64,000 nt of DNA, taken from the NCBI GenBank assembly GCA_947259415.1, contig CAMYMI010000013.1, positions 487 through 64,486 on the forward strand, given 5' to 3'. The position numbers and the translations under genes were made by a program. Shown piece after piece: positions 41,165-63,319 of the stretch (within the stretch, counting starts at the first letter, position 1; each line of letters opens with the position of its first letter). Below the pieces are notes generated by a model that worked only from the letters and a program-made list of their open reading frames with translations, ran no database searches and was not told the DNA's origin. The stretch comes from an uncultured Ectothiorhodospiraceae bacterium (GTDB lineage Bacteria > Pseudomonadota > Gammaproteobacteria > UBA9214).

Positions 41165-41878
41165 CTATCGCTTGTCGTAATCAGCTGCTGCTGTTAATCC
41201 AACCTGCTCGAGTAAGGCAGCGCGTTGGGCACGTAGGGTCGCATCCCCCGGATTCTGCTGGATTGCCCGAGATATCGAATCGATGGCGTCATACCACACC
41301 CCGTTTTCCGCATAAATACTCGCCATTGTTTGATGGTCTGCCTTAGCGATTCTGCTCTCGAGATCAGCATCTGGCGGGTCATATTGAATCGTGCCGCTGG
41401 CAATGACATCGTTGGAACGCTGTTCCTCATCAGGTGTCACGGATACGAACCAGCGGTACTCGATACCCGGCTCGAGTTTGGTGCCAGCGGTTGCCAGATC
41501 CAGCTGCTGGATCCCTGCGCTTTTCGGGGTGCCGACGACGTTCTCGAGAATCGGATCGATTGCCTCGTCATTGATCACGGTCACATCCAGTCGCGCATTT
41601 GCCGGTTTGGAGATGTACCAGTAGAGCGTGGGCTGGCTCTTGGTTGTCAGTCCGGTGTGATCCGGCGCAAGCACGGACAGTTCGAGCGTGGTTTCCCCCA
41701 CCCCGCGTGATCCGCCGCCGACACGACTGGCAGGTGCTCCCCGCAGTGGGGGGCTGTAGGTAAAGCCGCCGCCGCTCTTCTGCACTGAACTGCCGGTGGT
41801 TTCCTGGGCGGACACCAGGGTGGAAAATGGTGCAAGAATCAGAGTGAGTAACAGAGCAAGTGTCGTAACAGGATTCAT
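41165..41878 (-). CDS. Secreted DUF928-family protein
   Basis: Signal peptide 'MNPVTTLALLLTLILAPFSTLVSAQE'; Gly-rich linker; 'TLYWYISKP...LEPGIEYRWFVSV' resembles DUF928; 327 bp downstream of, and co-oriented with, the CHASE2 cyclase. Confidence 0.55.
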   Translation of the reverse strand: MNPVTTLALLLTLILAPFSTLVSAQETTGSSVQKSGGGFTYSPPLRGAPASRVGGGSRGVGETTLELSVLAPDHTGLTTKSQPTLYWYISKPANARLDVTVINDEAIDPILENVVGTPKSAGIQQLDLATAGTKLEPGIEYRWFVSVTPDEEQRSNDVIASGTIQYDPPDADLESRIAKADHQTMASIYAENGVWYDAIDSISRAIQQNPGDATLRAQRAALLEQVGLTAAADYDKR

Positions 41879-42204
41879 GGAGGCTTTCCCCGCTGGTTTC
41901 CAGTCATTATTGAATCACCCCTGTGTAACGCTGCCTTGCGAATCTTGAACCGGGTGGCCCCGATCGGTTGTTTCTTCCGGGACGTGAAACAGGAGTGAAC
42001 GCACCTCCCGCTACTTATAGCGGATCAATTACAGAAATACAAATCGGTCATGCAGGTGAATCGGTCTCGTCAGGCCGGCGTGCAGCGACATGCGCCGGTG
42101 TGTGCATCTGCCGTCTTGCGGGCACATTGTCCATCCCCCCATACCGGATACACGCCACCCCGGGATGGCATACACGCTTGTCAGATCGTGGGTTCTTGTT
42201 GATC

Positions 42205-44178
42205 TCAGTTGCTGGCTGTGGCCACTGCTGAAAGGACATCGCTGGCCTCCGCAGGGGTTTTTTCTCCAAGCAGCCGATAGACCATGACCCCCTCGGACTT
42301 GCCTTTCAGGCTGCAGATCCCGACGGGCTCGAGTTCGAACCGGTCCCCCAGACACTCGGCCGTATGGTCAGCCAGCAGGATCTGGCACAGGCTGTCCGGA
42401 GAGTTCCCGGGCGCCTCCTTGCTGAAGCTCTCGAGCCGGGCCGCGGTGTTGACCACGTCGCCGATGGTCGTGTACTTGATGCGCTGCGTGCTGCCCAGAC
42501 AGCCGGCCACCACCGGGCCGGTGGCAATCCCCACGCGGATCCTGACCAGCGGCGAGCCCTGTGCGGACCAGAACGCATTCAGCCGCTCCATCTCCTGCCG
42601 CATGGCCAGCGCACAACTCACGGCGTTGATGGCGTCCTGGCGGATCTGCGCATCGGTCGTGCGCGGGACGGGCACACCGAAATCCGCCTTGATGGCATCG
42701 CCGATGTAATTGTCCACCACACCCTCATATTGCGTGACCAGGCTCGCCATCGCCTCCATGTACTCGTTGAGCCAGTTCAGCAATTCCGTGGGGGTGAGCC
42801 GTTCGGCAACCGGCGTGAAATTGGCCAGGTCGGAAAACAGCACCGTGATCTTCATGGTCTGCGCATCCAGACGCCCGCCGTGCATGAAGCTGTCGCGGTG
42901 TTTCCACAATTCATCGGCAACCGTCGGCGAGACATTCTTGGAAAACAGGTCCATGAGCAGCCGCTTCTCGGCCTTTTCGTGGGTCGAGAGGTAGGCCATG
43001 ACCACGCCGGAGGCGGCCAGCCAGGCGAGTCCCGTGGGGGCGACCGGGATCCACCAACCGAGCATGAAGGCGGCAAACGCAATCGCAACCAGTGTCGCCA
43101 GGCCGCCGGCCGCGAGCAGGGTGAAGCGCAGGCCGGAACGGGTGAAGCGGCCGAGGATGGCCGCCAGTATCCCCCACAGCAGGATCCACAGATGTTCTGT
43201 CCGGTCGCTTGACACCTGGATGGGCACATCGCCCGCCAGGGCGGCCCGCAGCAGCTGACTGGTTTCATAGCCATGGACGGCAATCCCGGAGGTGGTCTGT
43301 CCCGGGCCGGCAAAGCGGTCGTAGGGGGTGAGAAATTCATCCTTCACACTGTCGGCATTGACACCGGCAATGACGATAGCGTCGCGGATGAGCGCCGGGT
43401 CCACCTGGTCGTCCAGGACATCGCTCATGGAATAGGTCGTGAAGGGATTGACACCGCCCCGGTAGTCGAGCAGGTACTGATAGCCGGCCGCATCAGCGCC
43501 CACGTAGGCACCGTCATCGGCCTCGAACGGGACGAAGGTCGTCGGTCCCAGGCGCAGGTGCTCGGGATTCGGGTCACCGGCCTGTGGCGTGATGTCTGCC
43601 TCGGCCAGATAGGCCATGGCGAGCCGCAGCGGCAGCGAGACGGAGAAGTTCTGGCCATCGTCGAGAAACAGCAGGCCCCGCCGTACCACGCCGTCGCTGT
43701 CCACGGTGACGTCGGAGAACCCGATCCGCTCCGTGCCCCGCAGGGCCTCGGGACCGAGCACCCGGGTGCCGCTGGCATCGCCGAATTTTTCGATGAAGAG
43801 GATGGAGTCGTTATTGCGGAGCAGGGCATTGAAGCGTTGCGTCCCGGGCGGCACGGCGAAATCCCGGTAGAGATCGACGCCGATCACCCGCGGTTCATGG
43901 TCGAGCAGCGCCTCGAGCAGGTCGGCCAGCCGGTCATCGGAGGGCGGCCATTGCTGGATGCGCTGGATGTCCTCCTCCACGATCTGGATCAGGACCAGGC
44001 GCGGCTCGGGCACGGTGTGGCGCTCCTTGACCCGGAGGAAGGCGTCGTAGGAGGCCAGTTCGAGGAACTGCAGATAGCCGGCGCCGCGCAGCCCGACCAC
44101 CAGCAGACAGGCCAGGATACCCAGCACCAGGCTCACCAGGGTCGGCGAGCGCAGCCGTTCCAGCCACTCAGCCTTCAT
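42205..44178 (-). CDS. CHASE2 extracytoplasmic sensor domain fused to a class III nucleotide cyclase
   Basis: N-terminal TM, about 300-aa periplasmic CHASE2 region, three TM helices, cyclase motifs 'VLFSDLANFT', 'YIGDAIKADFG', 'GDVVNTAARLE'. Confidence 0.85.
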   Translation of the reverse strand: MKAEWLERLRSPTLVSLVLGILACLLVVGLRGAGYLQFLELASYDAFLRVKERHTVPEPRLVLIQIVEEDIQRIQQWPPSDDRLADLLEALLDHEPRVIGVDLYRDFAVPPGTQRFNALLRNNDSILFIEKFGDASGTRVLGPEALRGTERIGFSDVTVDSDGVVRRGLLFLDDGQNFSVSLPLRLAMAYLAEADITPQAGDPNPEHLRLGPTTFVPFEADDGAYVGADAAGYQYLLDYRGGVNPFTTYSMSDVLDDQVDPALIRDAIVIAGVNADSVKDEFLTPYDRFAGPGQTTSGIAVHGYETSQLLRAALAGDVPIQVSSDRTEHLWILLWGILAAILGRFTRSGLRFTLLAAGGLATLVAIAFAAFMLGWWIPVAPTGLAWLAASGVVMAYLSTHEKAEKRLLMDLFSKNVSPTVADELWKHRDSFMHGGRLDAQTMKITVLFSDLANFTPVAERLTPTELLNWLNEYMEAMASLVTQYEGVVDNYIGDAIKADFGVPVPRTTDAQIRQDAINAVSCALAMRQEMERLNAFWSAQGSPLVRIRVGIATGPVVAGCLGSTQRIKYTTIGDVVNTAARLESFSKEAPGNSPDSLCQILLADHTAECLGDRFELEPVGICSLKGKSEGVMVYRLLGEKTPAEASDVLSAVATASN

Positions 44179-44623
44179 TCATGGACCTGCCTTGCCGGCG
44201 GCTCGGCAGCTGTGGATTTCAGCGTGCGGTTCAGGAAATTATCTGTCATTTGATTACGAGTTTACCGGACACGGAGCCCCGCTTCTTGTTTCAAACGGGT
44301 AAAAATACAAAATTAATAAAGCCCTATGTAGGGGCTTGACGCATCTCTAACAGGCCAACAGGCCGGCATAGAAACGGTTGACACCTTGTATTTTGCCACG
44401 GCGACAGGCGCCCGCTTTCGGTATCCGGCGGCGTTCTCTGCAAAAGACCCGTGATGAAAAAACAACCTGTAATCTATCGGATTTTGTTAACCGGTCGCAC
44501 GGATAAGGGTAACCGGGCGCGACTTCCCTGCATGCCATTTCTCGGGCCTGCGGGGCGCACCTCGACAGCCATGAACGGCCTCATGGTGATGATTTTTTTT
44601 AAGCACGGCGTGGTTTTGAATGG

Positions 44624-44683
44624 GGCGGCACGCACCATAAAGTGGCGGCACGCACCATAAAGTGGCGGTACGCACCACAAATT
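44624..44683. promoter_or_regulatory. Three tandem 20-bp direct repeats in the divergent promoter region between the CHASE2 cyclase and the RTX/TPS operon
   Basis: 'ggcggcacgcaccataaagt' x2 then 'ggcggtacgcaccacaaatt'. Confidence 0.6.
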
Positions 44684-45018
44684 ATGAAATGAAGGTTAAC
44701 CCAAAGGTGCTAGTTTACCTGTGGAAAATGCAGTTCAACACAACTACAATACGCCCGTACAATACCAACAGGATAGAAGAATTTTAATATATGGACATAT
44801 ATCGATACACAGCCCGGCGGGCCGAATCAATCCACTCCAGGTTGCGACTCCCATAAGCTATTCATGGACTATAATTAAAAAAATAAATTACGTCCGATGC
44901 GAATTCAGGTGATTAATCCGAGCTATTGATGCCGCTATCACCACTGCGGTTACCAGTATCAACAAATAAGTAACACAAAATAACTTAATAACACATAAAC
45001 GCGTCAGAGGATCCAGAC

Positions 45019-46893
45019 ATGAACAAATTAACCATCTCGCAATCGGTACGCGCTTCAACGTCCCGGTGTTGCAAGTCCATTTGCCTGTTCACCACCGCGC
45101 TGTCGCTGCTGGCAGCGTCGACCGCCCATGCCTGGCCGACCGGATCACGGGGCGGCTCCTTCTTCTTCGGCGGCAGTTCACTGACCCTGCTGTGGCAAAC
45201 CGTGGACAGCACCGACAACCTCGCGACCATCCAGCTGAACTATTTCGAGGCAGACGAACGGCTGTGCTTCACGGGTGAAGTCAAGGGCCTGTATTCGGAC
45301 GGGACCATGACCGGGGAAGCCATCTATGAATTGCTCGGTGTGGATGGGGCCTCACTCAACACCACTGGTATCTGTTACTCCTATGTGGCACAGGCATGTG
45401 ATCAATTATTAGACCAAGCTGGTAATCCAGTTAATCTCTCCCCGGGATTCATCGAAGAGTGTACCTACACGGTACCCAAACTTGAAGACATTACCGATTT
45501 GGACGGCCTGCTCAGCGGGCGTCTCCGGACGGTGCCGGGCAGCGGGACCGGTTACCTGGCGGCCTGCGACTCAGCGACACCGCCCCGAATCTGTGACTTC
45601 CAGGTCGGCATCGGCTTCAATAATTCCATTCCACCCGCTTTCTTCCCGGCGACGGTGACCACGGATGGCGACGCCGTGGCGGCGAATGTGGTCCTCTATT
45701 CGAATGAAATCTGCACACAATTTAACGCTTTCGACGATCTAAACCTGGCGCCAACCGCGGCCCTCAGCGCCAAATCAGCAACATTAAGGTCCTGCGAAGC
45801 CCTGGCCATCAAGGGGGACTGGTGCAGTGACCTGCAGAGCAACATGGGTGATCCCAAATGCGACGCCACCAACGCGAACGGACAATTCACCGTCGGCGGC
45901 TTCAACAACTCCGCGGGGGATTTCCTCGTTCAGACACCGTTCAGTATAAACTGTATTAGTAGCATCGAGGACCTGCGTAATCTCGAATCATGCGCGGAGG
46001 TCAACCTCGCCGCTTGCGGTGACGGTAGCGGCCTGCTTGAAATGCCAACGACGTACGATTCAGGTGGCACTACTTGTGGTGCTAACGTTAATTCAATCGA
46101 GTTCACATACAGTTCCTCCGATGGCGGGGGGGTTGATTACCTCAACGTGGCCTCGATCCTGAACTTCGGATCACCCGGCAACCCCGGTGACAACAGTACC
46201 CCGCCGTGCACCTCGGCCTGCATCGTGTCCACGCCCAGCAATAACGAGGTGAATACCTGGAACTTTTCCTCTACCACCTTGCAGGGCATCGGCTTCATCG
46301 ACGGCCGCAATAATGATGACATCATCACCGGGTCGCAGGGACCGGACACCATCCGCGGCGGCAGCGGTGCCGATACCCTCAACGGTGCGGGTGGCAACGA
46401 TATCCTCCAGGGCGGTGACAATGCGGACACGCTTAACGGTGATGACGGCGATGACCTGCTGTTGGGCTACGACTGCTATGGACCCAACGCCGACTGCTCG
46501 GTTGTATCGAACAACGGCAGTGACGATGACATCCTCAACGGCGGGCCCGGCAACGACTGCCTCGACGGCGGGCGCGGTAACGACACGGCCACCGGGGGCG
46601 AAGGCAGCGACGCTTTTGTTCTCTACGGCAACGTCGACAAAGACATTATCACTGACTTCAATATAGAAGAAGATGTGTTTGTGGACCTGACCGGGAATGC
46701 AACGGCGATATGGGTGCAAGGCAAGCGAGGTGCACCAAGTGTCTGTACAATCTCAACGGGTGGTAATGATGTCACCACTGTCGAAGGAATCGGAAAAGGA
46801 GATTGTAAGAAGCCCCCTCTCACCATCCTGGATCCAAGCGCTGGTGATGATTTCCCGACACAGTGTGCCGGTCATCCCTATTCCTTTCAGTAG
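45019..46893 (+). CDS. Secreted Cys-rich protein with C-terminal RTX (hemolysin-type Ca-binding) repeats
   Basis: Sec signal ('LLAASTAHA'), more than 25 Cys in the N-terminal 400 aa, nonapeptide repeats 'GGSGADTLNGAGGNDILQGGDNADTLNGDDGDD', 'GGPGNDCLDGGRGNDTATGGEGSD'. Confidence 0.7.
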   Translation: MNKLTISQSVRASTSRCCKSICLFTTALSLLAASTAHAWPTGSRGGSFFFGGSSLTLLWQTVDSTDNLATIQLNYFEADERLCFTGEVKGLYSDGTMTGEAIYELLGVDGASLNTTGICYSYVAQACDQLLDQAGNPVNLSPGFIEECTYTVPKLEDITDLDGLLSGRLRTVPGSGTGYLAACDSATPPRICDFQVGIGFNNSIPPAFFPATVTTDGDAVAANVVLYSNEICTQFNAFDDLNLAPTAALSAKSATLRSCEALAIKGDWCSDLQSNMGDPKCDATNANGQFTVGGFNNSAGDFLVQTPFSINCISSIEDLRNLESCAEVNLAACGDGSGLLEMPTTYDSGGTTCGANVNSIEFTYSSSDGGGVDYLNVASILNFGSPGNPGDNSTPPCTSACIVSTPSNNEVNTWNFSSTTLQGIGFIDGRNNDDIITGSQGPDTIRGGSGADTLNGAGGNDILQGGDNADTLNGDDGDDLLLGYDCYGPNADCSVVSNNGSDDDILNGGPGNDCLDGGRGNDTATGGEGSDAFVLYGNVDKDIITDFNIEEDVFVDLTGNATAIWVQGKRGAPSVCTISTGGNDVTTVEGIGKGDCKKPPLTILDPSAGDDFPTQCAGHPYSFQ

Positions 46894-47000
46894 GAACGGG
46901 GATTAACAACAAAGTAACCGCGCGGTGCAGGCCTGCACCGCGCGGCGCGATAACCACAGCGCGGTACCGGAGACGGATGACCGCAGAGGGGGAGTTGTTC

Positions 47001-49916
47001 ATGCAAGCAGATCGTTACCGTCGCCGACGCGCTGCCGCCTGCATCGGCCTGGTACTCGGCATGACCCTGCCCGCACTCGCGTGGTCCGGTGCCACCCTCG
47101 ACGGCTCCATGGGCACCAGCGGTGCGTTTTCGGGGAACTTCACCGTCCCGGACACTGTCGGCCAGACCGTCGGGGCCAACCTGCTTCACAGCTTCAGCGA
47201 TTTCAGCATCAACGCCGGCGAGAGCGCCACCTTCACCGGGCCCGTGGAAATCGACAACGTGGTCTCACGCGTTTCCGGCAACAGTCCGTCAACCTTCAAC
47301 GGCCCGCTCTTCTCGGCAATCCCGAGCGCCAATTTCTATTTCCTCAACCCCAACGGCGTCCTGTTCAAGGAAGGCGCCCAGATCAATGTCGACGGCTCGT
47401 TCTATGCCACGACCAGCGATTTTGTCCGGCTGGGTCAGGACGGTATCTTTTATGCCGACCTCGCCGCGCAAAGCGTGCTGACCAGTTCTCCACCGAGCGC
47501 CTTCGGATTTCTCGATAGCAACCCGGGGCAGATCGCGCTGGAGGGCACGCACCTGGTGAGGTTCTTCTCGCTCAATCAGCCGGACGGCGCGACGCTGAGC
47601 CTGGTGGGTGGCGACATCACGCTCGAGCAGGCGGCACCCGGGACCCAGACCCTGCTGGGGACAGCGAACAGTGCCGGCAGTTACATCGGGTCGGCCGGGA
47701 ACCGCGTCGAGATCGTGAGTGTGGCCTCTGCCGGGGAGGCGCTGCCGGGCAGTGGAGACTATGATCTGTCCTCCTTCGATACGCTCGGTGACATCGAAAT
47801 CAGCGGCGGCAGTGTCGTCGATGCCACCGATGTCTACATCCGGGGCGGCCAGCTGCTCATGCAGGATTCCGTGATCGCCGCCGGCTTCTTTACCGTGGCC
47901 GCCCTGGCCCCGCCGCCGAGTGGCGGTCGCATCGATGTGGGGATGTCCGGGGCCATCGACGTGACGGGCAACACACCGCTGGAGCTGGAGATCAATCATC
48001 CTGATTTCGGGCCCTTCGTGGTGTTCAAGCCCGATGGTGGACTCTACTATTCGGGCATCACGGCGTTCGCGGGCAGCCCCGTCCCCGGACCGCCGCCCGC
48101 CAATGTCGCCGCCATCGATGTTACGGCAGGTGACATTGACTTCACCGGCTTTGCCGGCGTGATCACCGAACGCTTTGGCCCCGGCGGGGCGAGCGACATC
48201 AGCATCAGCGCGGACACGGTAGCATTCCGCAACGGTGCTCCCATCGCCAATATCAACTATTACGACGGTGCCGGTGGCAGCATCACCGTGAACGCGGATC
48301 AGGTGGTGCTCGATGGCGAGGGCGACCCCAGCGGATTCAGCGGTATCACCTCGGCCAGCTTCGTCAGCCCGGTCTTCGGCAACCCGGATATCCCGCCACC
48401 CTTCGATCCGGCCAACCCGGAACTCACCTTCGCGGATGCCGGCAGCGTTACCGTCAATGCCACGGGTCCCGGGGGACTGACCGTGCGCGGTGGCGCCTCG
48501 ATCAACGGCGAGAGCCGCACCTTTGGCCGGGGGGCCGATATCACGATCAATGCCAGCGACATCTTCCTTGCGCGGGACGGGATGCCCTTCGGATCAATTG
48601 CCTCGCAAAGCGCTTATGCCGGCGATGCCGGGAATATCCAGATACAGGCGACCGGGGATATCCGGATGCAGGAAGGTTTTGAAATCTCGGGCAGCACGGC
48701 CGGTACCGGGGCCGGCGGAACGGTGTCGGTTTCAGCGAGTAACGTGATTGATATCAGCGGGGAGAACAGCGGTATCGCCAGCGCCACCGTGGAGCCGCCA
48801 CCTGCTGTCGAGGATTCCCTTGCCCAACTGTTCGGGGTCCCCGACTTTGCCACGCTGGTCGGGTTGCTCACGGATTTCGGCCTGGTGGGTCCTGATGCAG
48901 ATATGTTTGATGTGCTGGGTGCCCTGCAGATCATCGGTTTTATCAATCTGGGGGATCCTGAGCCGAGCGCCGGGGATGCGGGTGCCGTGTCCGTGGCCGC
49001 TGCCACCCTGTCCATGAGTGGATTGGGGCGTATCACCTCATCAACGACCGCCGATGGTACGGGTGGCCCCATCAATATCAACGTGGGTTCACTAGCGCTC
49101 GCGGATGGCGCCGAGATCCGCAGTCGCAGCGGGCTCGTCAGCGTCATCACGGGAGAACTGGATGTCGGCTCCGGTAATGGCGGCGACATCGCGGTCACGG
49201 CTTCGAATGATGTCACCATGGAGTCCGGCTCAAGCATCTCCGCGAGAAGTCTGGGAACCGGGCTGGCGGGTGACATCGCCATCAATGCCGGCAACCGGCT
49301 CGACATGTCGGGCGACAGCAGCATCAGCACCCAGGCCACCGTCTCCGACGGCGGCAACATCGGGGTCAACGCAACCGAGCGGGTGTACCTGAACCAGGCG
49401 CAGATCACGACCTCCGTGGAGAGTGGCCTGGGCGGCGGCGGCAACATCGATGTCGATCCCGATTTCGTCGTTCTCAACCAGAGCAACATCCTCGCCAATG
49501 CCTTTGGCGGCCCCGGCGGCAACATCACCATCGTGGCCGGCAACTTCATCACGACGCCGGACAGCACGATCGACGCCTCTTCCGCCCTCGGGCTCGACGG
49601 CACGGTCAACATCAGTTCGCCGGATCAGGAGGTCGCCGAGGACCTGGCCGTCTTGCCTGCGAATTATCTCGATGTGACCGGACTCATCAGCGAACGCTGC
49701 GGCACGACCGTCGGCGCCAGCAGCCTGGTCGATGCCGGCGCGGGCGGACTGGCGATCGACCCGGACGGCTATCTGCCAAGTTTTGCACTGGAAACCAATC
49801 AAGAAGACGAAACGAAAGGGGGAAGCAGAACTGTCAGCAGCGGCGAGCGCTGGTGGGCGCTGGAGATGAACCAGACAGCGTTGTTACCACTCGCCCTGGT
49901 GACCTGCGCACGCTAA
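47001..49916 (+). CDS. TpsA-type exoprotein: N-terminal TPS (haemagglutination-activity) secretion domain plus Gly/Ser/Ala-rich beta-helical repeats
   Basis: 'GANLLHSFSDFSINAGESATFTGP...VSRVSGNSPSTFNGPL...FYFLNPNGVLFKEGAQINV' matches the TPS domain (NPNG motif); start set at ATG 47001 after a GGGGGAG RBS. Confidence 0.8.
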   Translation: MQADRYRRRRAAACIGLVLGMTLPALAWSGATLDGSMGTSGAFSGNFTVPDTVGQTVGANLLHSFSDFSINAGESATFTGPVEIDNVVSRVSGNSPSTFNGPLFSAIPSANFYFLNPNGVLFKEGAQINVDGSFYATTSDFVRLGQDGIFYADLAAQSVLTSSPPSAFGFLDSNPGQIALEGTHLVRFFSLNQPDGATLSLVGGDITLEQAAPGTQTLLGTANSAGSYIGSAGNRVEIVSVASAGEALPGSGDYDLSSFDTLGDIEISGGSVVDATDVYIRGGQLLMQDSVIAAGFFTVAALAPPPSGGRIDVGMSGAIDVTGNTPLELEINHPDFGPFVVFKPDGGLYYSGITAFAGSPVPGPPPANVAAIDVTAGDIDFTGFAGVITERFGPGGASDISISADTVAFRNGAPIANINYYDGAGGSITVNADQVVLDGEGDPSGFSGITSASFVSPVFGNPDIPPPFDPANPELTFADAGSVTVNATGPGGLTVRGGASINGESRTFGRGADITINASDIFLARDGMPFGSIASQSAYAGDAGNIQIQATGDIRMQEGFEISGSTAGTGAGGTVSVSASNVIDISGENSGIASATVEPPPAVEDSLAQLFGVPDFATLVGLLTDFGLVGPDADMFDVLGALQIIGFINLGDPEPSAGDAGAVSVAAATLSMSGLGRITSSTTADGTGGPININVGSLALADGAEIRSRSGLVSVITGELDVGSGNGGDIAVTASNDVTMESGSSISARSLGTGLAGDIAINAGNRLDMSGDSSISTQATVSDGGNIGVNATERVYLNQAQITTSVESGLGGGGNIDVDPDFVVLNQSNILANAFGGPGGNITIVAGNFITTPDSTIDASSALGLDGTVNISSPDQEVAEDLAVLPANYLDVTGLISERCGTTVGASSLVDAGAGGLAIDPDGYLPSFALETNQEDETKGGSRTVSSGERWWALEMNQTALLPLALVTCAR

Positions 49917-49918
49917 CT

Positions 49919-51730
49919 ATGCCATTACCAATTGATCAGAATGCCGGTTCTGCAGGCAGAACCGGCAAGGGGCCGCTTGGTGCCCTTAACACCTTCTTGG
50001 CCAGGACGGCGCTTTCCCGGTTCATCGTGCTTGCCCTGGGGCTCTGGCTGGGACTGGGTACGGCCCATGCGCAACCGGTCGGCCCCGGTTCCCCGGGCGA
50101 TACGCCCGCCGGCGGGGTCAGCCGGCCGGGTGACTTTCGTCCGGTGTTGCCGGCGCCCGGCCTGCCGCCAGAGGCACCGGTCGCACTCCCACCGGTTGCG
50201 CCGGCCCCCGAGAAAGCGCCGGTTCCCTATGGCGTCCGGGTGTTCGTCAAGGAGATCCGGCTCACGGGCAATACCGTGTTCACCACCGCGGAACTGAAGG
50301 AAATCACGGCACCCTACGAGGGTCGCGAGGTCTCCAGCAGCGAACTCGAGGACCTGCGCGTTGCCCTGACCCGGCACTACATTCAGCACGGCTATTTGAA
50401 TTCCGGCGCGGTGATCCCCGACCAGAAGGTCGTCGACGGCGTCATCCAGATGGCCATTGTCGAGGGCCGCCTGACCGACATCGAGGTTGCCGGCAACACC
50501 TATCTGAATGCCGATTACATCAAGGACCGGCTCAGGCTCGGCGCGGGACCGCCACTGAATGTGCAGGATCTGCAGGAGCGCATCCAGATCATGCTCGAGT
50601 CACCCCTGTTCGACACCCTCAATTCAGAGTTGCAGCCGGGTGACCGGCCGGGCGAGGCCACGCTCATGACCATGGTCGACGAGGGTCCCCGCTTCCAGTT
50701 CATCCCGGTCATCGACAACCGGCTTTCACCGAGTCTGGGCGATGTCCGGGCGCTGCCGCAGATCTATGCCTACAGCCTGACCGGGCGGGGTGACATCCTC
50801 AATGCCGCCGTCGGCGTGGGTGACGGGCTGACGAATGCCTACGCTAACTGGGCCATTCCCCTGAATGCCCATGACACGACACTCACCCTGCTTGCGGACT
50901 ACACCGACTCGGAAATCGTGGAGGGTCCGTTCGAGGCCCTGGATATCGAGAACGAAACCCGGACCTTCGGTTTCCGGGTCAGCCATCCCTTCTACCGGAC
51001 CCCGAGCCAGAATTTCAGCATGGCGCTGGGACTGGACCTGCGCAAGAGTGAATCCCGGCTGCTCGGCGAAGACTTCGCCTTCACTCCCGGCGTGCCCGCG
51101 GATGGTGAGGTGCAGGCCACGATCATCCGTTTCTCCCAGGACTGGTCAAGGCGCGAACCGAACCAGGTCCTGGCCGCGCGTTCCCTGTTCAGCATCGGCA
51201 TCGATGCCTTCGACGCCACCGTTAATTCAGGTGACCTTCCCAGCGGGGAGTTCTTCGCCTGGCTGGGCCAGTTCCAGTGGGCCAGGCTGCTGGGAGACAA
51301 GGGGGGACAACTGATCTTCCGCGCCAATGTCCAGCTCACCAACGATCCGCTGTTCAGCATGGAGCAATACGCGGTTGGCGGGGCGCTCAGCGTGCGCGGT
51401 TACCGCGAGAATCAGCTGGTGCGCGATTATGGCTACGATGCCTCGCTCGAGTACCGTCATCCGCTGATCAAGGACGCCAGCGGCAGAACCATCCTGGCGT
51501 TGGCGCCCTTCATCGATGCCGGTGGGGCGAACAACAACGAACTGCCCGAGGGATCGAATCCGAAGGACATCTACAGTGCCGGCCTTGGCCTGCGCTGGGA
51601 CCCGACCCCCAAGATTCACGCCGAGCTCTACTGGGGACACGCCTTCCGCGACGTGGACAATGACGACGATTCCCTGCAGGACGATGGCGTGCACTTCCTC
51701 ATCAGCGCCAACCTGCTGGAATGGCCCTGA
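49919..51730 (+). CDS. TpsB outer-membrane transporter (ShlB/FhaC/HecB family; POTRA plus beta-barrel)
   Basis: Signal peptide, POTRA 'VKEIRLTGNTVFTTAELKEITAPYEGREV...LTRHYIQHGYLNSGAVIP', C-terminal beta-barrel ending in an aromatic-rich strand; starts 2 nt after the TpsA stop. Confidence 0.8.
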   Translation: MPLPIDQNAGSAGRTGKGPLGALNTFLARTALSRFIVLALGLWLGLGTAHAQPVGPGSPGDTPAGGVSRPGDFRPVLPAPGLPPEAPVALPPVAPAPEKAPVPYGVRVFVKEIRLTGNTVFTTAELKEITAPYEGREVSSSELEDLRVALTRHYIQHGYLNSGAVIPDQKVVDGVIQMAIVEGRLTDIEVAGNTYLNADYIKDRLRLGAGPPLNVQDLQERIQIMLESPLFDTLNSELQPGDRPGEATLMTMVDEGPRFQFIPVIDNRLSPSLGDVRALPQIYAYSLTGRGDILNAAVGVGDGLTNAYANWAIPLNAHDTTLTLLADYTDSEIVEGPFEALDIENETRTFGFRVSHPFYRTPSQNFSMALGLDLRKSESRLLGEDFAFTPGVPADGEVQATIIRFSQDWSRREPNQVLAARSLFSIGIDAFDATVNSGDLPSGEFFAWLGQFQWARLLGDKGGQLIFRANVQLTNDPLFSMEQYAVGGALSVRGYRENQLVRDYGYDASLEYRHPLIKDASGRTILALAPFIDAGGANNNELPEGSNPKDIYSAGLGLRWDPTPKIHAELYWGHAFRDVDNDDDSLQDDGVHFLISANLLEWP

Positions 51731-51967
51731 CCGGGGGCAGGCAAGTCCTGCTTATACGGATTTGGACGTAACTGCGTTCCAGAAGGCCGTACAACCCTGA
51801 CACCAATGAGAGACTGCTTTTGCGGATGTAGTCATGCCGCATGAAGCAGGCCGCGGCCTGCAGCGGGAGCGGGGCAAGCATCAGTAATGACAAGCCAGGG
51901 ACGGTGATTAATTCATCTTTCATCATTCCGGCGCAAACCGGAATGACGTTCTGACTTTCTCTACACT

Positions 51968-54277
51968 CTAGAGCCAGTTGCCGATCAGCAGGAACGGTCC
52001 CCAGTAGCTCGGGTGATGGAAGCGGGGATCGTCGAGCAGTGTCAGCTGGGCCTGCTGCAGTGCCTGCGCCTTGGATACGCTGGGCTCCTTGAGATTCCTG
52101 TAGAACTCGGAGACCAGCAGTGACGAGGCCTGGTCGTTGATGTACCACAGTGTCGCCACGGCACTCCGCGCACCGGCCTTCACCGCAACCCCACCGAGAC
52201 CCAGGGCCGCCTTGTCATCGCCCACAGCTGTCTGGCAGGCGCTGAGGGTGAGCAATTCAACCGGCTGATCACGATAGGTCGTGCTGGCCATGTAGCCTTC
52301 GAGCCGGTCCATGCTGAGCCGGCCGTCGAAGGTCAGCAGGAAGGTATCGCGCACATCGCTCTGGAACTTGCCGTGCGAGGCGACGTGCACGATCGAGTAG
52401 GGGGTGTCGCTGAGCTGTTGTTCCACGTTCGAAATTGTGAAACTGCTGTTCTGCAGCACGGCACCCTCGTAGAGTTCGTCGAGGCTCGTCATCTCGCTCG
52501 ACACATCCGGCAGGGGCGGGAAACCCTGCACGCTTTCCGTCAAACCCGCCATCAGCAACTGGACATTTTCCCGCGGCAGTGGCTGGGGATCGGTGAGCGT
52601 AAGACCCGGCGTGGTCGCCACGGCATACCGGTTGACGATAAACTCTTTGCCATCATAGAGAGCCGCCAGGGGGATGGTCCGCAGGGCCCCGTCGGGAATG
52701 AAGACCAGGGTGTCGATCTTCAGCGCCTCGAGATCCTTTTCCAGCGGTTGCACCAGCCAGGTGTAGACCTTCTGCGCATGCCGCTTGTACTGGTGGGTGG
52801 TGCGTTTCTCCAGCCGGGCGCGGAAACGGTTTACCTCCTCATTCAGTTCATCGGCACTGACCGGAACAGTGTAGCGTTGCATGCCGCTTGGCAGACTGAC
52901 GAGGATTTCGAGGCGGTCCGGCAGAACAATCGGGTAGATCGCCGCGGTGCGTTCACCCAGCTGATCGATTCCCGTCGTTTTTTTCCTGAGCGCCGCAACG
53001 CAATCATCCTGGAAATAGTCCTCCAGCTCTGCGCCCTTGAGCATCTCGACGGTGGTGCGCACCTCACGCAAGTCAGCTTCCACGGCACTTGCGTCAGCAG
53101 TGGCATCCGCCCTTTGCAGAAGCAGATCCGCAAGATCCAGATATAACCGTCCGGCTTCATTCCGGAACTCCCCGTGCCTGCCCATGTAACCGGCCGCGAG
53201 TACCGGGCGAATTGTCTGGAGGTCATCGACGGCACGCTGGTGCGCGCGTATCGCGGCATCGACATCGCCAGCTGCGCGTAACAGGCGGCCCTCCTGCCAT
53301 TGCCACCGATAGCGGATCTCCGGTGCCGGCGTTTCCTGCAACTGGTGCAAGGCCCTGTGGGTATAGCGCATGGCATCTTCGCTGCGTCCTGCGCCTTCGT
53401 AGAGTGCACCCAGATAGCCATAGGCGTAGGACATGGCCCGGTCGTCATCGATCGACTCGGCAATCACCGCAGCCTCGTTGAGCGCATCATACGCACGCTT
53501 CTGCAGCGCTTCGGTGGCAGTCCCGGAACTCCCCGACAGGCGCGAATAAAGCCGGCCGATGCTGATCAGTGCATAGGCCTTCTCATGCGAAGGTGGAAGT
53601 GACTTGACGTGTCCCGCTGCACGACCAAGTTGCTCCCGGGCCTCGTCCCAGCGGTTGTCTTCCACCAGTACCCGTGAAATGTTGACAGCCCCCTTGGCCA
53701 CCAGGGTGTCACTACCTGCCGCTTTCGCATCGGCCATGGCCTGCTTGAAAACGGCGACTGCGGTGTTCGCTTCACCCTGTGAGGCGAGGAGGTTACCCAG
53801 GTTGTTTCCGGCCACGGCGGCCGCACCCGGCCGACCACCTGCACGCTCCGCTGACACCGCATTCTCGAGCAGTACCTTCGCGTCGTCGAGGCGGTTGGAG
53901 AGCAGATAGGCCGTCCCCAGGCTGGCCGCCACCTTTGCTGCGAGCCGTTCGTCCCCCGCTGCCTCCGCCAGCCCCAGTGCGGTTTTCAGACTGCTGATCG
54001 CCTTGTTATTCTGACCGATGGAAAGATAGGCCTCGGCCTTGTGCTGCAGTATGCGCGCCTGACCGGTCTTGTCATTCGTCTTGCGGTATTCCTTAAGTGC
54101 CGCGTTCCATGCCCCCAGGGCCTCTTCGAACCGACCATCTTTAAAATAGCTGCTCCCGCGCTCGACGGAGTCGGCAACGGTGACACTGGTGGGTGGTTCG
54201 ACAGCAGCCAACACTGACGTGGCAAACAAGAAACTGACAGTAATACTCAAGGCTTTTGAGAAGAAGCTGCGTTCCAT
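51968..54277 (-). CDS. Exported TPR-repeat CHAT-domain (caspase-like) protease
   Basis: Signal peptide 'MERSFFSKALSITVSFLFATSVLA', multiple TPRs, C-terminal CHAT with the His/Cys dyad 'HVASHGKF' ... 'LSACQTAVG'. Confidence 0.85.
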   Translation of the reverse strand: MERSFFSKALSITVSFLFATSVLAAVEPPTSVTVADSVERGSSYFKDGRFEEALGAWNAALKEYRKTNDKTGQARILQHKAEAYLSIGQNNKAISSLKTALGLAEAAGDERLAAKVAASLGTAYLLSNRLDDAKVLLENAVSAERAGGRPGAAAVAGNNLGNLLASQGEANTAVAVFKQAMADAKAAGSDTLVAKGAVNISRVLVEDNRWDEAREQLGRAAGHVKSLPPSHEKAYALISIGRLYSRLSGSSGTATEALQKRAYDALNEAAVIAESIDDDRAMSYAYGYLGALYEGAGRSEDAMRYTHRALHQLQETPAPEIRYRWQWQEGRLLRAAGDVDAAIRAHQRAVDDLQTIRPVLAAGYMGRHGEFRNEAGRLYLDLADLLLQRADATADASAVEADLREVRTTVEMLKGAELEDYFQDDCVAALRKKTTGIDQLGERTAAIYPIVLPDRLEILVSLPSGMQRYTVPVSADELNEEVNRFRARLEKRTTHQYKRHAQKVYTWLVQPLEKDLEALKIDTLVFIPDGALRTIPLAALYDGKEFIVNRYAVATTPGLTLTDPQPLPRENVQLLMAGLTESVQGFPPLPDVSSEMTSLDELYEGAVLQNSSFTISNVEQQLSDTPYSIVHVASHGKFQSDVRDTFLLTFDGRLSMDRLEGYMASTTYRDQPVELLTLSACQTAVGDDKAALGLGGVAVKAGARSAVATLWYINDQASSLLVSEFYRNLKEPSVSKAQALQQAQLTLLDDPRFHHPSYWGPFLLIGNWL

Positions 54278-54884
54278 TTTTTTACCTCCTGGTGGCGGTC
54301 CGGCGCAATACGCAAAGTATCGCATAAATCTGGCCAGATCACCTCCTGCGCAAGTCTATTTGGTACCGGGATTGGCTGTATTTTACGGGTCTGTGGGATG
54401 GTGTCTGGCATAAAATAGCCAACTCCGATTCTTGTAGAAGGCAATTCGGTAATTTTTGAACTACTTATATTAGAAAGTGCTTGCTGCGCTATCATGCCAT
54501 GGCGCAGTGGCACGGATTTCCTTCACAAAAATGGACACTATGTGCAGATTGCCTCTCCGATTGATCCGTTCTTGAGCATCTAATACAGACGGATCCCTGT
54601 AATACCAAGGGAGCCATCAGGCTGCACGTGGTCCCGGATGATAAGGTTTGTCTGACCGGGTGTGTCCTGCCTGCCGTAGGTAATAACGCCGACAGTGAAG
54701 CAGGTCGCGTTCCGGGATTTCCCGCCGCGGTATCGTGATCGGAAAATTGTCAGGCAAGGGATATGTTCACCAACTGCCGAATAGCCCCCGACTGGGATGG
54801 GGTGTTTGTGCACACCCAGAAGTGATTCGGGATTGCTTTTCTGTGTTATCCGCTATTTTACCCTGCGCTTGATCGGGTAGTCCC

Positions 54885-55390: not shown

Positions 55391-55438
55391 ACACTCTGAA
55401 GTACAATGAACCACGGCTAATATTCGAGACATCGATTT

Positions 55439-58166: not shown

Positions 58167-58204
58167 GGTTTCTCCTTTTCCGTTGCTGTTCATCCGCGGG
58201 CTTA

Positions 58205-62930: not shown

Positions 62931-62943
62931 GAGTTCCAAGTTG

Positions 62944-63318: not shown

Positions 63319-63319
63319 T

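Follow-up and report, generated by a model that had tools for sequence, protein, structure and literature searches.

Composition of the locus

In a 64,000-nucleotide stretch of DNA (here, the window) from an uncultured Ectothiorhodospiraceae bacterium, a gammaproteobacterium rather than a cyanobacterium, genes for a two-partner secretion pair, an exported CHAT protease, a CHASE2-sensor cyclase, a DUF928 protein and a Cys-rich RTX protein lie close together, which raises the question of whether they form one system and, if so, what that system does. A sequence-only reading of the window had described the six genes as a coherent signalling system. We found all six at the positions listed below, and the TPS, CHAT, CHASE2 and DUF928 assignments were each confirmed by a Pfam profile. 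All domain calls on window genes were above the Pfam curated cut-off, with E values ranging from 1e-12 to 1e-59 across the DUF928, CHASE2 and class III cyclase, RTX, TPS, POTRA/ShlB, TPR-CHAT and Crp families.

41165..41878, minus strand: DUF928 protein, 237 aa (Pfam E 7e-39, profile positions 2-180/184)
42205..44178, minus strand: CHASE2-sensor class III nucleotidyl cyclase, 657 aa (Pfam CHASE2 E 3e-56, Guanylate_cyc E 3e-25)
44624..44681: 20-bp tandem repeat, 2.9 copies (GGCGGCACGCACCATAAAGT; Tandem Repeats Finder score 102, 94% matches)
45019..46893, plus strand: Cys-rich exported protein with C-terminal RTX repeats, 624 aa (Pfam HemolysinCabind E 2.5e-12)
46917..46946: perfect palindromic hairpin, 13-bp stem with 10 G-C pairs (terminator-like scan and sequence)
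47001..49916 (longest ORF 46863-49916), plus strand: TpsA exoprotein, ~971 aa from Met47 (Pfam TPS E 2e-28)
49919..51730 (longest ORF 49853-51730), plus strand: TpsB outer-membrane transporter, 603 aa (Pfam POTRA_2 E 7e-23, ShlB E 3e-19, Omp85 E 2e-13)
51968..54277 (longest ORF to 54325), minus strand: exported TPR-CHAT caspase-like cysteine protease, 769 aa (Pfam CHAT E 4e-59, TPR_12 E 6e-17)
55439..56080, plus strand: Crp-family transcription factor, 213 aa (Pfam cNMP_binding E 2e-27, HTH_Crp_2 E 6e-16, Crp E 1.5e-7)
58595..59104, minus strand: stand-alone cNMP-binding protein, 169 aa (Pfam cNMP_binding E 3e-19)

Inspection of the sequences identified signal-peptide-like N-terminal segments in the DUF928, RTX, TpsA, TpsB and CHAT proteins. 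As proposed, tpsB starts 2 nt past the tpsA stop codon, with an ATG at 49919. Other details of the arrangement had to be revised. The 31-bp overlap reported between the RTX gene and tpsA is an artefact of choosing the longest ORF: the TpsA signal peptide starts at Met47 (47001) or Met39 (46977), and the hairpin sits between the RTX stop codon and the real tpsA start. The CHAT gene, previously placed divergently from the TPS pair, in fact converges on tpsB across a 237-bp gap and diverges from crp, ~1.16 kb away. The DUF928 gene does lie downstream of the cyclase gene, but not immediately so, with a gap of 326 bp here and a median of 24 bp in relatives. The 20-bp tandem repeat lies in the 840 bp that separate the divergent cyclase and RTX genes and is possibly a regulator binding array.

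Five of the genes recur together across bacterial phyla

We used iterated HMMs to scan 71 DUF928 loci in GTDB species-representative genomes; two peptide patterns defined the DUF928 subfamily that this census covered, and most of the genomes were fragmented MAGs. Among the 35 loci with at least 12 kb of flank, CHASE2-cyclase genes were present in 24, CHAT in 24, TPS in 23 and TpsB in 21. All four partners were present in 14 of the 35 and none in 6, so the suggested co-occurrence of DUF928, CHASE2, CHAT and TPS genes extends far beyond chance; Pfam annotations from an independent pipeline concurred with this linkage. The same-strand gene directly upstream of DUF928 encoded a CHASE2-cyclase in 38 loci and a CHAT protein in 8. 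The gene cluster recurs in at least seven bacterial phyla, and the complete five-gene set (TpsA::CHAT fusions counted) was found in Gamma-, Beta- and Alphaproteobacteria, Nitrospirota, Thermodesulfobacteriota, Verrucomicrobiota and Planctomycetota. About ten gene orders occur, some loci have 4-bp start/stop overlaps between module genes, and in three (L010, L039 and L073) the five genes are tightly coupled as an operon. The five families also diverge in correlated fashion (r 0.5-0.95). We concluded that TpsA, TpsB, TPR-CHAT, CHASE2-cyclase and DUF928 almost certainly constitute one functional unit.

The sixth gene does not belong to this set. Homologues of the RTX protein, which has 25 Cys, were found elsewhere only in L064 and L069, making three closely related loci in all among the 71, and in other loci the slot upstream of tpsA holds unrelated exported proteins. 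The original six-gene system thus stands for the five genes conserved together across phyla, and the RTX gene is a lineage-specific accessory. We found no published description or experimental characterisation of the module in the searchable literature, in agreement with the earlier statement that it is experimentally uncharacterised.

TpsA carries a putative periplasmic anchor and is fused to the CHAT protease in some relatives

TpsA has a signal peptide, the canonical TPS domain with NPNG motif (FYFLNPNGVLF) that had been recognised previously, and a beta-helical body. Its partner TpsB combines a signal peptide and POTRA with a ShlB/FhaC-type Omp85 barrel that carries a VRGY loop-6 motif. 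The claim that TpsA lacks a C-terminal toxin also held: Pfam identified no toxin domain, and the C-terminal block is conserved in a profile of 28 orthologues from many phyla. In the window TpsA, this end forms a two-cysteine loop, with Cys at mature positions 900 and 969 and a terminal C-A-R-COOH. A Cys third from last (C-x-x-COOH) was present in 19 of 27 TpsA orthologues with an intact stand-alone C terminus, most of which have only two Cys in the mature part. The clade to which the window belongs does not conserve the Arg of the C-terminal block, which weakens the case for a universal Arg-specific cleavage site there.

In the TpsA proteins HMW1 and HxuA, a C-terminal disulfide-bonded loop acts as an anchor (PMC5422565). 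Like the window TpsA, these proteins are exported by an Omp85-type TpsB (HMW1B and HxuB) (PMC5422565); they are retained at the surface by a small periplasmic disulfide loop, and the window TpsA and its orthologues have such a two-Cys loop. From the conserved cysteines alone, we infer that the loop of the window protein is a periplasmic anchor of the same type, which would bring the TpsA end next to the exported protease within the periplasm. HMW1 and HxuA differ from the window protein: they serve in host adhesion or haem acquisition, and no protease, cyclase or DUF928 is associated with them.

TPS and TPR-CHAT domains are joined in a single protein in 14 protein clusters, and the fusion genes belong to compact operons with CHASE2-cyclase, DUF928 and TpsB genes. 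The L073 operon has the order CHASE2cyc-DUF928-TpsB-TpsA::CHAT, and in L076 and L077 the TpsA::CHAT fusion adjoins cNMP_binding-CHASE2cyc-DUF928. In the L044 fusion, TPR-CHAT starts directly after the conserved TpsA C-terminal block.

The exported TPR-CHAT protease has an invariant catalytic dyad

The CHAT protein, identical to a 769-aa database protein with its start at 54277, has a signal peptide, ~9-10 TPR pairs and a CHAT domain with HVASHG and LSACQT motifs. The His/Cys dyad had been called intact, and we found His647, His651 and Cys697 to be invariant in 25 CHAT orthologues. Nearly all complete stand-alone orthologues have a signal-peptide-like segment. In an AF2 model, the TPR part was confident and the catalytic CHAT half was of low confidence.

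DdvA is a periplasmic TPR-CHAT anti-sigma factor that controls a CBASS/CRISPR island (PMC11506125). It shares with the window protein the His/Cys dyad, a proposed signal-induced periplasmic proteolysis and a role in transmembrane signalling. However, DdvA is membrane-anchored, dimeric and tied to an ECF sigma factor via RseP, whereas the window CHAT protein is soluble (or fused to TpsA in relatives) and genetically coupled to a cyclase. A working model for a CHAT protease relaying a signal is Craspase (type III-E CRISPR, Cas7-11 with the TPR-CHAT protein Csx29), which is inactive until its partner changes conformation and then cuts one specific substrate, releasing a regulator. Unlike the window CHAT protein, Craspase is cytoplasmic and RNA-triggered, with unrelated partners, and we found no sequence match to the solved Craspase structures beyond the TPR part.

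DUF928 lies beside either the CHAT protease or the CHASE2-cyclase

DUF928 has a Sec signal peptide followed, near the N terminus, by an invariant Arg/Gly/Pro-rich motif, FxYxPPxRGAPxxRxGGGxRG, that was found only in DUF928 ORFs and is duplicated, or swapped for (GVSR)n arrays, in some lineages. The protein contains no Cys and is predicted to be soluble and periplasmic; its model has an Ig-like beta-sandwich and a 5-helix TPR-like domain, with the invariant motif disordered. By two methods, the top structural match was MtxA (PDB 4Z29), with 17-18% identity in structural alignments; the DUF928 profile did not retrieve MtxA at E<=1, and no sequence-level relationship is detectable. In Magnetospirillum, mtxA encodes a periplasmic protein and adjoins a CHASE2 adenylate cyclase gene, and its deletion gave no phenotype (PMC4439547). 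MtxA differs from DUF928 in its longer, distinct N-terminal region, and a link to TPS or CHAT has not been reported for it.

Sets of TPS, CHAT and DUF928 genes lacking CHASE2 occur in L045-L052, where DUF928 stays adjacent to CHAT. Conversely, L011, L041 and L063 have a CHASE2-cyclase/DUF928 pair with no TPS or CHAT gene within 10 kb, indicating that the two halves of the module can work apart. Since DUF928 is kept beside whichever half is present, it looks like a hub of the module rather than an appendage. Orphan DUF928 genes lie beside unrelated genes in L038, L053, L056 and L068 and beside a TPR gene and a TIR gene in L070.

The cyclase has an N-terminal TM helix, a periplasmic CHASE2 domain (~residues 23-340), a hydrophobic membrane region that starts near residue 349, with no Pfam assignment before the next domain, and a cytoplasmic cyclase domain (441-634). 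Among solved structures, P. aeruginosa CyaB (3r5g; E 3e-30) is its closest match. Among 37 cyclases compared, the metal-binding Asp450 and Asp494 were Asp in all 37, and the transition-state residues Asn577 and Arg581 were kept in 35 and 36, respectively. The canonical substrate Lys is replaced by Asn490 in the window cyclase and by Asp in most relatives; hence, the product is uncertain, and cAMP or cGMP, as first suggested, should not be assumed.

The Crp-family regulator described beside the module is present at 55439-56080, and cNMP-binding genes, often Crp-type, are frequent neighbours elsewhere. A crp gene is located close to DUF928, on its upstream side, in L009 and L010 (at the operon head in L010) and ~1.7 kb or less upstream in L058, and one adjoins the cyclase gene in L063. 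The window Crp-family factor probably reads the cyclase product, although Crp-box enrichment was not found in the window. The protein encoded at 58595..59104 is 62% identical to one (L006:3052-3510) whose gene adjoins DUF928 in L006; judged by sequence, the window gene is orthologous to the small cNMP-binding gene neighbouring DUF928 in related genomes.

A comparable pathway is known in S. meliloti, where the inner-membrane CHASE2 class III cyclases CyaK, CyaD1 and CyaD2 need the outer-membrane protein NsrA, and perception of an extracellular protein signal leads via cAMP to the Crp-like regulator Clr, encoded nearby (PMC13001267, PMC7529298). That pathway and the window share CHASE2 cyclases, an outer-membrane protein and a nearby Crp-family regulator. 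In contrast to the window, the S. meliloti outer-membrane partner is the beta-barrel NsrA rather than a TpsA/TpsB pair, and neither a CHAT protease nor DUF928 is described in those papers (PMC13001267, PMC7529298).

Alternative explanations for the module

We favour the reading that the locus carries a copy of a trans-envelope signalling module which is widely conserved and converts a surface event into a cNMP signal, with a probability of about 50%. A minority possibility is adhesin display and release combined with a separate sensor, as in the Lap system of Pseudomonas, in which a periplasmic element keeps the adhesin LapA lodged in its outer-membrane pore, the periplasmic cysteine protease LapG cuts the tether, and the inner-membrane receptor LapD couples cutting to a cyclic nucleotide. 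TpsA would then be a surface adhesin or matrix filament with a periplasmic anchor, and CHAT its maturation or release protease; CHASE2-cyclase and DUF928 would respond on their own to a cue from the environment or the envelope and would govern adhesin expression or release by way of cNMP and Crp. Information would run from the cyclase to the TPS system and not the reverse. The two-Cys anchor and missing toxin domain suit a tethered adhesin. Also in favour of this reading are the separate occurrence of the two halves, the crp gene at the operon head in L010 and close upstream in L009 and L058, and the precedent of periplasmic proteases that free surface adhesins (LapG acting on LapA; SphB1, DegP and CtpA processing FhaB). 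However, the retention of DUF928 with CHAT when CHASE2 is missing is unexpected of a pure CHASE2 co-sensor, and the five-gene operon coupling exceeds the usual relation between a regulator and its target. Moreover, the cyclase is an output enzyme, and no module protein couples a cytoplasmic cNMP-binding domain to a periplasmic domain, as LapD-type inside-out control needs. Lap also differs in its type I secretion, BTLCP protease and c-di-GMP-binding receptor that signals inside-out, and its proteins are not homologous to those of the window.

It is improbable that the module is an envelope sensor for defence or conflict, in which the filament would be a decoy or sensor for attack by phage or competitors, TPR-CHAT would be activated as in CHAT immunity, and a Pycsar-like nucleotide alarm would reach cNMP-binding effectors. 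CHAT proteases are prominent in immunity (Craspase; DdvA, PMC11506125), the cyclase specificity residues are unusual, and TPR and TIR genes adjoin the orphan DUF928 in L070. The cyclase also matches PADLOC PycC models (E 4e-24) and the Crp factor matches the cNMP domain of PycTIR, but these matches reflect generic class III cyclase and cNMP-domain homology, and DUF928, TpsA, TpsB and CHAT matched no defence-specific family in PADLOC. Around the module, the window encodes housekeeping and envelope functions (Mla, pyruvate kinase, Na/H exchanger) and contains neither a defence island nor mobile elements. The cNMP readers neighbouring the module across loci comprise Crp regulators, small cNMP-binding proteins and transporters, and no TIR or pore effectors are among them.

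Contact-dependent inhibition or cytolysin-type toxin delivery, with the other genes as unrelated neighbours, is very improbable. The TPS domain and ShlB-type TpsB are common to CdiA/CdiB and ShlA/ShlB, but no toxin domain, pre-toxin motif or immunity gene was found at the locus, and the ~970-aa TpsA ends in an anchor-type Cys loop within a non-toxin block common to orthologues in many phyla. We rejected chance co-location of envelope and signalling genes, each from a family common in environmental Gram-negative genomes, on the basis of the 71-locus census, the ~ten gene orders, the 4-bp overlaps, the Rosetta-stone TpsA::CHAT fusions, the recurrence across phyla and the correlated divergence of the five families.

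Proposed order of events in the signalling module

In the trans-envelope signalling reading, TpsB would put the toxin-less TpsA beta-helix on the surface, and the disulfide-locked C-terminal loop would remain behind in the periplasm to anchor it, following the HMW1 and HxuA pattern. TPR-CHAT would replace this anchor loop in the fusion proteins. With a surface helix and a periplasmic anchor, TpsA would span the outer membrane, its periplasmic end beside the protease. We consider it likely that CHAT, DUF928 and the TpsA tail are all periplasmic. If the surface filament changes, through binding, pulling or loss, the activity or access of periplasmic CHAT may be altered, and CHAT would then act on the TpsA tail and/or the disordered, invariant Arg/Gly-rich motif of DUF928; we name these two as its substrate only tentatively. 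The periplasmic anchor and the TpsA::CHAT fusions plausibly fit a version of the TpsA-CHAT-CHASE2 order of events, in which CHASE2 would sense a TpsA fragment cut by CHAT. DUF928, an Ig and TPR protein resembling MtxA, would pair with the CHASE2 domain in the periplasm and, through its state, set cyclase activity, and the cyclic nucleotide would be read by the adjacent Crp regulator and the small cNMP-binding protein. We put the odds at about even that the net flow through the module runs from the outside in and ends in cNMP.

Domain content and arrangement of the module in the window

Open reading frames (ORFs) at 41.1 to 56.1 kb of the window were scanned against Pfam with curated cutoffs. 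The features are listed below, together with a small cNMP-binding gene beyond the scanned region.

Genes of the module and its cNMP-binding neighbors in the window
41165-41878, minus strand: DUF928 protein (Pfam PF06051, E 7e-39, 133.9 bits against a cutoff of 26, profile positions 2 to 180 of 184)
42205-44178, minus strand: CHASE2 domain with class III cyclase (CHASE2, E 3e-56; cyclase domain, E 3e-25)
45019-46893, plus strand: Cys-rich RTX protein, 624 amino acids (aa), 25 Cys (C-terminal RTX repeats, E 2.5e-12)
ending at 49916, plus strand: TpsA, a TPS-domain exoprotein (PF05860, E 2e-28, NPNG present)
ending at 51730, plus strand: TpsB, a POTRA_2/ShlB transporter (POTRA_2, E 7e-23; ShlB, E 3e-19; Omp85, E 2e-13)
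51968-54325, minus strand: TPR-CHAT protein (PF12770, E 4e-59, profile positions 2 to 289 of 289)
55439-56080, plus strand: Crp-family regulator (cNMP_binding, E 2e-27; HTH_Crp_2, E 6e-16; Crp, E 1.5e-7)
58595-59104, minus strand: small cNMP-binding protein, orthologous to the copy in relative locus L006 (62% identical)

The six domain assignments made in the sequence-only reading (DUF928, CHASE2-cyclase, RTX, TPS, POTRA/ShlB, and TPR-CHAT) all scored above the Pfam curated cutoffs. The start of tpsB lies 2 nt past the tpsA stop, and the ORF spacing thus agrees with that reading. Two details of the arrangement required correction. First, a 31-bp overlap of the RTX gene with tpsA exists only with the longest tpsA ORF; the TpsA signal peptide starts at Met47 (47001), with Met39 (46977) as a possible start, and a perfect hairpin with a 13-bp stem (46917-46946) separates the two genes. 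Second, the CHAT gene, which had been placed as divergent, runs toward tpsB, tail to tail, and is divergent relative to crp. An identical database CHAT protein has its start at 54277. The DUF928 gene lies 326 bp 3′ of the cyclase gene. On inspection of the sequences, signal-peptide-like N-terminal segments were found in DUF928, RTX, TpsA, TpsB, and CHAT.

The chromosomal genes around the module are ordinary and encode Mla lipid-transport proteins, pyruvate kinase, an Na/H exchanger, and a GAF-PP2C phosphatase. The nearest database proteins come from uncultured Gammaproteobacteria, with Thiogranum, Ectothiorhodospiraceae, and Acidiferrobacterales as named relatives. No RNA family was detected in the window by Rfam at gathering thresholds. 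A REP-like palindrome, CCCTCTCCC-N2-8-GGGAGAGGG, occurs in 13 exact copies in the window versus 0 expected (39611; three at 54911-55312; 56722; three at 58301-58491; five at 62790-63487). Copies near the module lie outside called genes, three of them occupying part of the 1.16-kb gap between CHAT and crp, and the copies give rise to spurious ORFs (e.g., 55286-55900). The cyclase and RTX genes diverge from an 840-bp intergenic region, in which a 20-bp unit, GGCGGCACGCACCATAAAGT, is present in 2.9 copies (44624-44681) and may be a regulator binding array. A search for Crp boxes (TGTGA-N6-TCACA, up to 2 mismatches) gave 16 matches in the window versus 26 expected, with none in the intergenic regions of the module. 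An exported 258-aa protein without a family match is encoded between crp and the small cNMP-binding gene (57417-58193, minus strand), and a gene for an 894-aa HEAT-repeat protein (59037-61721, minus strand) overlaps the end of the latter. A second class III cyclase, cytoplasmic and with the architecture GAF-GAF-PAS-cyclase-TPR (36872-39223, minus strand; 783 aa; GC3, 0.87), is encoded 2 kb from DUF928; its adjacency to the module is not kept in other genomes.

The gene set is linked across phyla

We aligned 22 DUF928 homologues and used the alignment to retrieve 71 loci, including flanks of at most 10 kb per side, from genomes represented once per GTDB species. Two peptide patterns define the DUF928 subfamily that this census samples, and its genomes are for the most part fragmented metagenome-assembled genomes (MAGs). 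The window domains seeded iterated HMMs, with which we searched the six-frame ORFs; the HMMs drew on the loci that they were used to search, and Pfam checks agree with them. The loci span Gamma-, Beta-, and Alphaproteobacteria, Nitrospirota, Verrucomicrobiota, Thermodesulfobacteriota, Myxococcota, Planctomycetota, Gemmatimonadota, and Cyanobacteria. Among all 71, many of which are on short contigs, CHASE2 was found in 42, CHAT in 32, TPS in 30, and TpsB in 28. Among the 35 with at least 12 kb of flanking sequence, the counts were 24, 24, 23, and 21, respectively; 14 of the 35 had all four, 19 had CHAT, TPS, and TpsB, and 6 had none. The same-strand gene directly upstream of DUF928 encodes a CHASE2-cyclase in 38 loci, with a median CHASE2-DUF928 gap of 24 bp, and CHAT in 8. 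Annotations from an independent Pfam pipeline match the census calls.

Gene order is shuffled between loci, with the gene set retained. A Gallionella MAG (L010) has Crp-DUF928-TpsA-TpsB-CHAT-cyclase on one strand, Nitrospirales have TpsA-TpsB-CHAT-cyclase-DUF928 (L039 and L050), and in Burkholderiales and Thermodesulfobacteriota CHAT-cyclase-DUF928 faces TpsB-TpsA (L024 and L036). Further orders occur in Verrucomicrobiota and Phycisphaerales (L043 and L066). CHASE2 is missing from some loci, of Azospirillum and Nitrospiraceae (L045 to L052), in which one to three DUF928 genes come after those for TpsA, TpsB, and CHAT; in other loci (L011, L041, and L063), a cyclase-DUF928 pair is all that was found of the module within 10 kb. 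Since both of these submodules hold DUF928, it is their common denominator. DUF928 is an orphan gene in a few loci. All-against-all clustering of the ORFs, as a search for more conserved components, yielded only shadow ORFs and lineage-restricted genes of the slot upstream of tpsA.

Between loci, the pairwise identities of each family correlate with those of the others (five families; r, 0.5 to 0.95; uncorrected for species phylogeny), which is consistent with joint inheritance and to which we give little weight. With the same lack of correction, divergence of CHAT correlates best with that of TpsB (r, 0.95); for TpsA and TpsB, which are known partners, r is 0.87. The sequence-only reading had named a gene-neighborhood survey beforehand as the test that could refute it. 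Linkage was upheld across the 71 DUF928 loci, and this linkage, the independent Pfam annotations, and the correlated divergence together leave the proposal unrefuted. We concluded that the conserved neighborhood is real and broad.

The RTX gene is a lineage-specific accessory

The sequence-only reading had proposed a set of six genes. Linkage across phyla supports five of them; homologues of the sixth, encoding the Cys-rich RTX protein, were found among the 71 loci only in L064 and L069, which are close relatives of the window locus. Elsewhere, the slot upstream of tpsA is occupied by unrelated exported proteins that differ by lineage: a 519-aa protein of no family (L005:5719-7278), a 314-aa PEP-CTERM protein in the Rhodoferax group (L012:6821-7765), and a 421-aa protein (L001:4806-6071). 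Given the rarity of RTX homologues and the presence of other genes in the slot, the RTX gene is a lineage-specific accessory, and the slot may be a position for a variable partner or cargo. The protein carries the repeats plus an N-terminal Sec-like signal, and no ABC/MFP/TolC-type genes were found among the Pfam-scanned cluster genes (41 to 56 kb). We class it as an RTX-repeat protein and not a typical type I secretion (T1SS) substrate.

The TpsA tail and TpsA-CHAT fusions suggest a periplasmic site for the protease

TpsA has a TPS domain with the motifs FYFLNPNGVLF and NLLHSFSDF, and TpsB combines a POTRA/Omp85 barrel of the ShlB/FhaC type with the loop-6 VRGY motif (SVRGYRE). In an alignment of 28 TpsA orthologues, the TPS domain and a C-terminal block are conserved. 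Most orthologues have only two Cys residues in the mature protein, 45 to 100 residues apart, one of them in the C-terminal block; in 19 of 27, a Cys is the third-from-last residue (C-x-x-COOH), and the window protein ends in ...VTCAR. In HMW1 and HxuA, a disulfide-bonded loop at the C terminus stays in the periplasm as an anchor and keeps TpsA locked in the pore of TpsB (PMC5422565). The conserved Cys pair of TpsA in the window and in its orthologues may form a loop of this kind. A GRGG-like stretch of the C-terminal block was considered as a universal Arg cleavage site and rejected because the Arg is missing in the clade of the window.

In one locus (L044), a single 1,696-aa ORF contains a TPS domain (residues 205 to 439), TPR repeats, and a CHAT domain (1428 to 1692), the TPR-CHAT part starting directly after the conserved TpsA block, at the expected position of the loop. 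A search with this fusion found PF05860 and PF12770 in one protein in 14 clusters, from Gammaproteobacteria, Pseudomonadales, and cyanobacteria. In one compact fusion operon (L073), the genes for the cyclase, DUF928, TpsB, and TpsA::CHAT follow each other in that order on the same strand, and the last three overlap by 4 bp at each of their two junctions. In two other loci (L076 and L077), TpsB-TpsA::CHAT faces cNMP_binding-cyclase-DUF928. Neither CHASE2 nor DUF928 was found near one cyanobacterial fusion. A separate signal peptide is absent from the fused CHAT and present in nearly all stand-alone CHAT proteins that are complete. The simplest reading of these sequences is that the TpsA C terminus would be periplasmic and that the protease would work there, fused or free.

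Conserved catalytic residues in the protease and the cyclase

The sequence-only reading had described the CHAT His/Cys dyad as intact, and the catalytic residues His647, His651, and Cys697 are indeed invariant in 25 orthologues. With these residues and a complete CHAT domain, the window protein is a predicted CHAT (clan CD caspase-like) protease. A PDB sequence search with it matched TPR proteins only, and the CHAT half of its structural model is unreliable.

In the cyclase, CHASE2 covers profile positions 2 to 256 of 257 (PF05226) and is followed by the cyclase domain; hydrophobic segments lie at approximately residues 8 to 21 and from approximately residue 349. The best-aligning solved cyclase is the Pseudomonas aeruginosa adenylate cyclase CyaB (3r5g; E 3e-30). 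The metal-binding residues Asp450 and Asp494 are invariant in 37 of 37 relatives, and the transition-state residues Asn577 and Arg581 are conserved in 35 and 36 of 37, respectively. On these residues, the cyclase looks competent. At the canonical substrate-Lys position, the window protein has Asn, and of 37 relatives, 21 have Asp, 10 have Lys, and 3 have Asn; hence, cAMP cannot be assumed as the product. Across the window protein and 36 relatives, residues 490 and 497 covary, with Asp or Asn paired with Lys in 22, Lys paired with Met in 9, and few exceptions. The Asp/Asn...Lys pattern suggests relocation of the lysine or another nucleotide specificity.

DUF928 has a conserved disordered motif and the fold of MtxA

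An AlphaFold2 (AF2) model of DUF928 (pLDDT, 78; pTM, 0.74) has an Ig-like sandwich (residues 56 to 166) followed by a five-helix TPR-like domain (171 to 236). The first 37 residues have pLDDT below 50, and pLDDT is approximately 48 to 63 in the region of an N-terminal motif that is invariant in the alignment, FxYxPPxRGAPxxRxGGGxRG. This motif was found only in DUF928 ORFs and persists whether or not the module includes CHASE2. Two whole copies are present in Albibeggiatoa (L037 and L038), and some metagenomic homologues also have it in duplicate; in Thiomargarita/Thiotrichaceae, long (GVSR)n arrays stand in place of its GGGTRG part (L032, L033, L034, and L057). Conserved, disordered in the model, and multipliable, the motif resembles a site of docking or cleavage.

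The PF06051 profile matched 6,352 cluster representatives (50% identity) at E ≤ 1e-3. Multiplication of DUF928 is frequent: tandem two-domain proteins of 450 to 500 aa are among the database proteins retrieved (P0148, P0150 to P0153, and P0158), and two or three DUF928 paralogues can stand in a row 3′ of CHAT; loci with multiplied DUF928 are L049, L051, and L052, and L040 and L043. A PDB sequence search with DUF928 matched designed TPRs only. The fold match to MtxA, a periplasmic Magnetospirillum protein whose gene lies beside that of a CHASE2 adenylate cyclase, is strong. MtxA has no sequence match to DUF928, and its motifs KDDND and MRPLLI are absent from the Rhodospirillales DUF928 proteins examined. 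We concluded that DUF928 and MtxA share a fold and a neighbor and are distinct sequence families.

cNMP-binding proteins recur beside the module

The Crp-family protein of the window has both an N-terminal cNMP-binding domain and a C-terminal Crp-type helix-turn-helix, as identified by Pfam. Crp regulators lie by the module in the window and in four other loci (L009, L010, L058, and L063), and cNMP-binding proteins recur there in several further forms: small stand-alone proteins (L005, L006, and L008), a 214-aa protein (L076), and, adjoining DUF928 in several Gammaproteobacteria, an MMPL/RND-like transporter with a sterol-sensing-type domain and a C-terminal cNMP-binding domain (L001:10793-13538, L003:4200-6944, and L011:10748-13591). 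Given this transporter fusion, lipid or envelope export may be a further process under control of the cyclic nucleotide. The recurrent cNMP-binding neighbors, including that at 58595-59104 in the window, support a cyclic nucleotide as the output of the module. A Pycsar assignment was rejected: the PADLOC matches are generic (cyclase plus cNMP domain), and the neighboring readers are Crp and small cNMP-binding proteins.

A proposed relay and its alternatives

CHASE2 is among the commonest bacterial extracytoplasmic sensor domains. To our knowledge, no factor that it recognizes has been established (Pfam description, Zhulin et al. 2003). In the literature that we searched, DUF928 has only a passing mention in a single paper, of a CHASE2-DUF928 neighborhood in Nostoc punctiforme. 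CHASE2 and two-partner secretion did not appear together in that literature, which leaves out most subscription journals, and CHAT appeared with CHASE2 or with TPS only in incidental co-mentions. As far as this search of few subscription journals extends, the module is uncharacterized, and an earlier description elsewhere is possible. Among periplasmic CHAT proteases, DdvA alone has been studied to date, and no trigger or substrate has been described for it (PMC11506125). The closest characterized pathway is that of Sinorhizobium meliloti, in which outer-membrane NsrA, the CHASE2 cyclases CyaK and CyaD1/D2, and the Crp-like regulator Clr transduce a protein signal (PMC13001267, PMC7529298).

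Linkage, gene fusions, export signals, and conserved catalytic residues are direct observations; a mechanism leading from the cell surface to a cyclic nucleotide is plausible. TpsB would display the TpsA beta-helix, with the Cys-loop tail remaining in the periplasm and the TPR-CHAT protease positioned at that tail. A change at the surface would alter the action of the protease on the tail, on the DUF928 motif, or on both. DUF928, as a periplasmic partner of CHASE2, would set cyclase activity, and Crp and the small cNMP-binding protein would read the product. In its most specific form, to which we tentatively assign a probability of roughly 0.28, this is an undescribed periplasmic relay: outer-membrane-spanning TpsA would report on the surface, TPR-CHAT would cut DUF928 at its Arg/Gly-rich N-terminal motif (or would cut the TpsA tail), and processed DUF928 would be an activating ligand or coreceptor of CHASE2 that switches on a cyclase of noncanonical nucleotide specificity.

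A tethered-adhesin system, with expression or release under an independent CHASE2/DUF928 sensor, would likewise have TpsA held by its tail, and we regard it as possible, if unlikely. A role of the module as an envelope defense sensor seems improbable. A toxin-delivery TPS system is disfavored: in a comparison with CdiA/CdiB, no Pfam toxin family was found in TpsA, in line with the sequence-only reading, its C-terminal region is a conserved nontoxin block, and tpsB directly follows tpsA, so that there is no immunity gene. Chance colocation is refuted by the census.

The module genetically joins three unknowns, the CHASE2 ligand, DUF928, and periplasmic CHAT, and adds a defined topology. If the relay is true, DUF928, with more than 6,000 sequence clusters, would acquire a function, CHASE2 would gain its first defined partner, and periplasmic CHAT proteases would gain their first defined role. 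Signaling from the surface to a cyclic nucleotide by this route would then be a new Gram-negative way of sensing contact or surface damage, widespread in environmental lineages such as sulfur oxidizers, Nitrospirota, Verrucomicrobiota, and giant sulfur bacteria.
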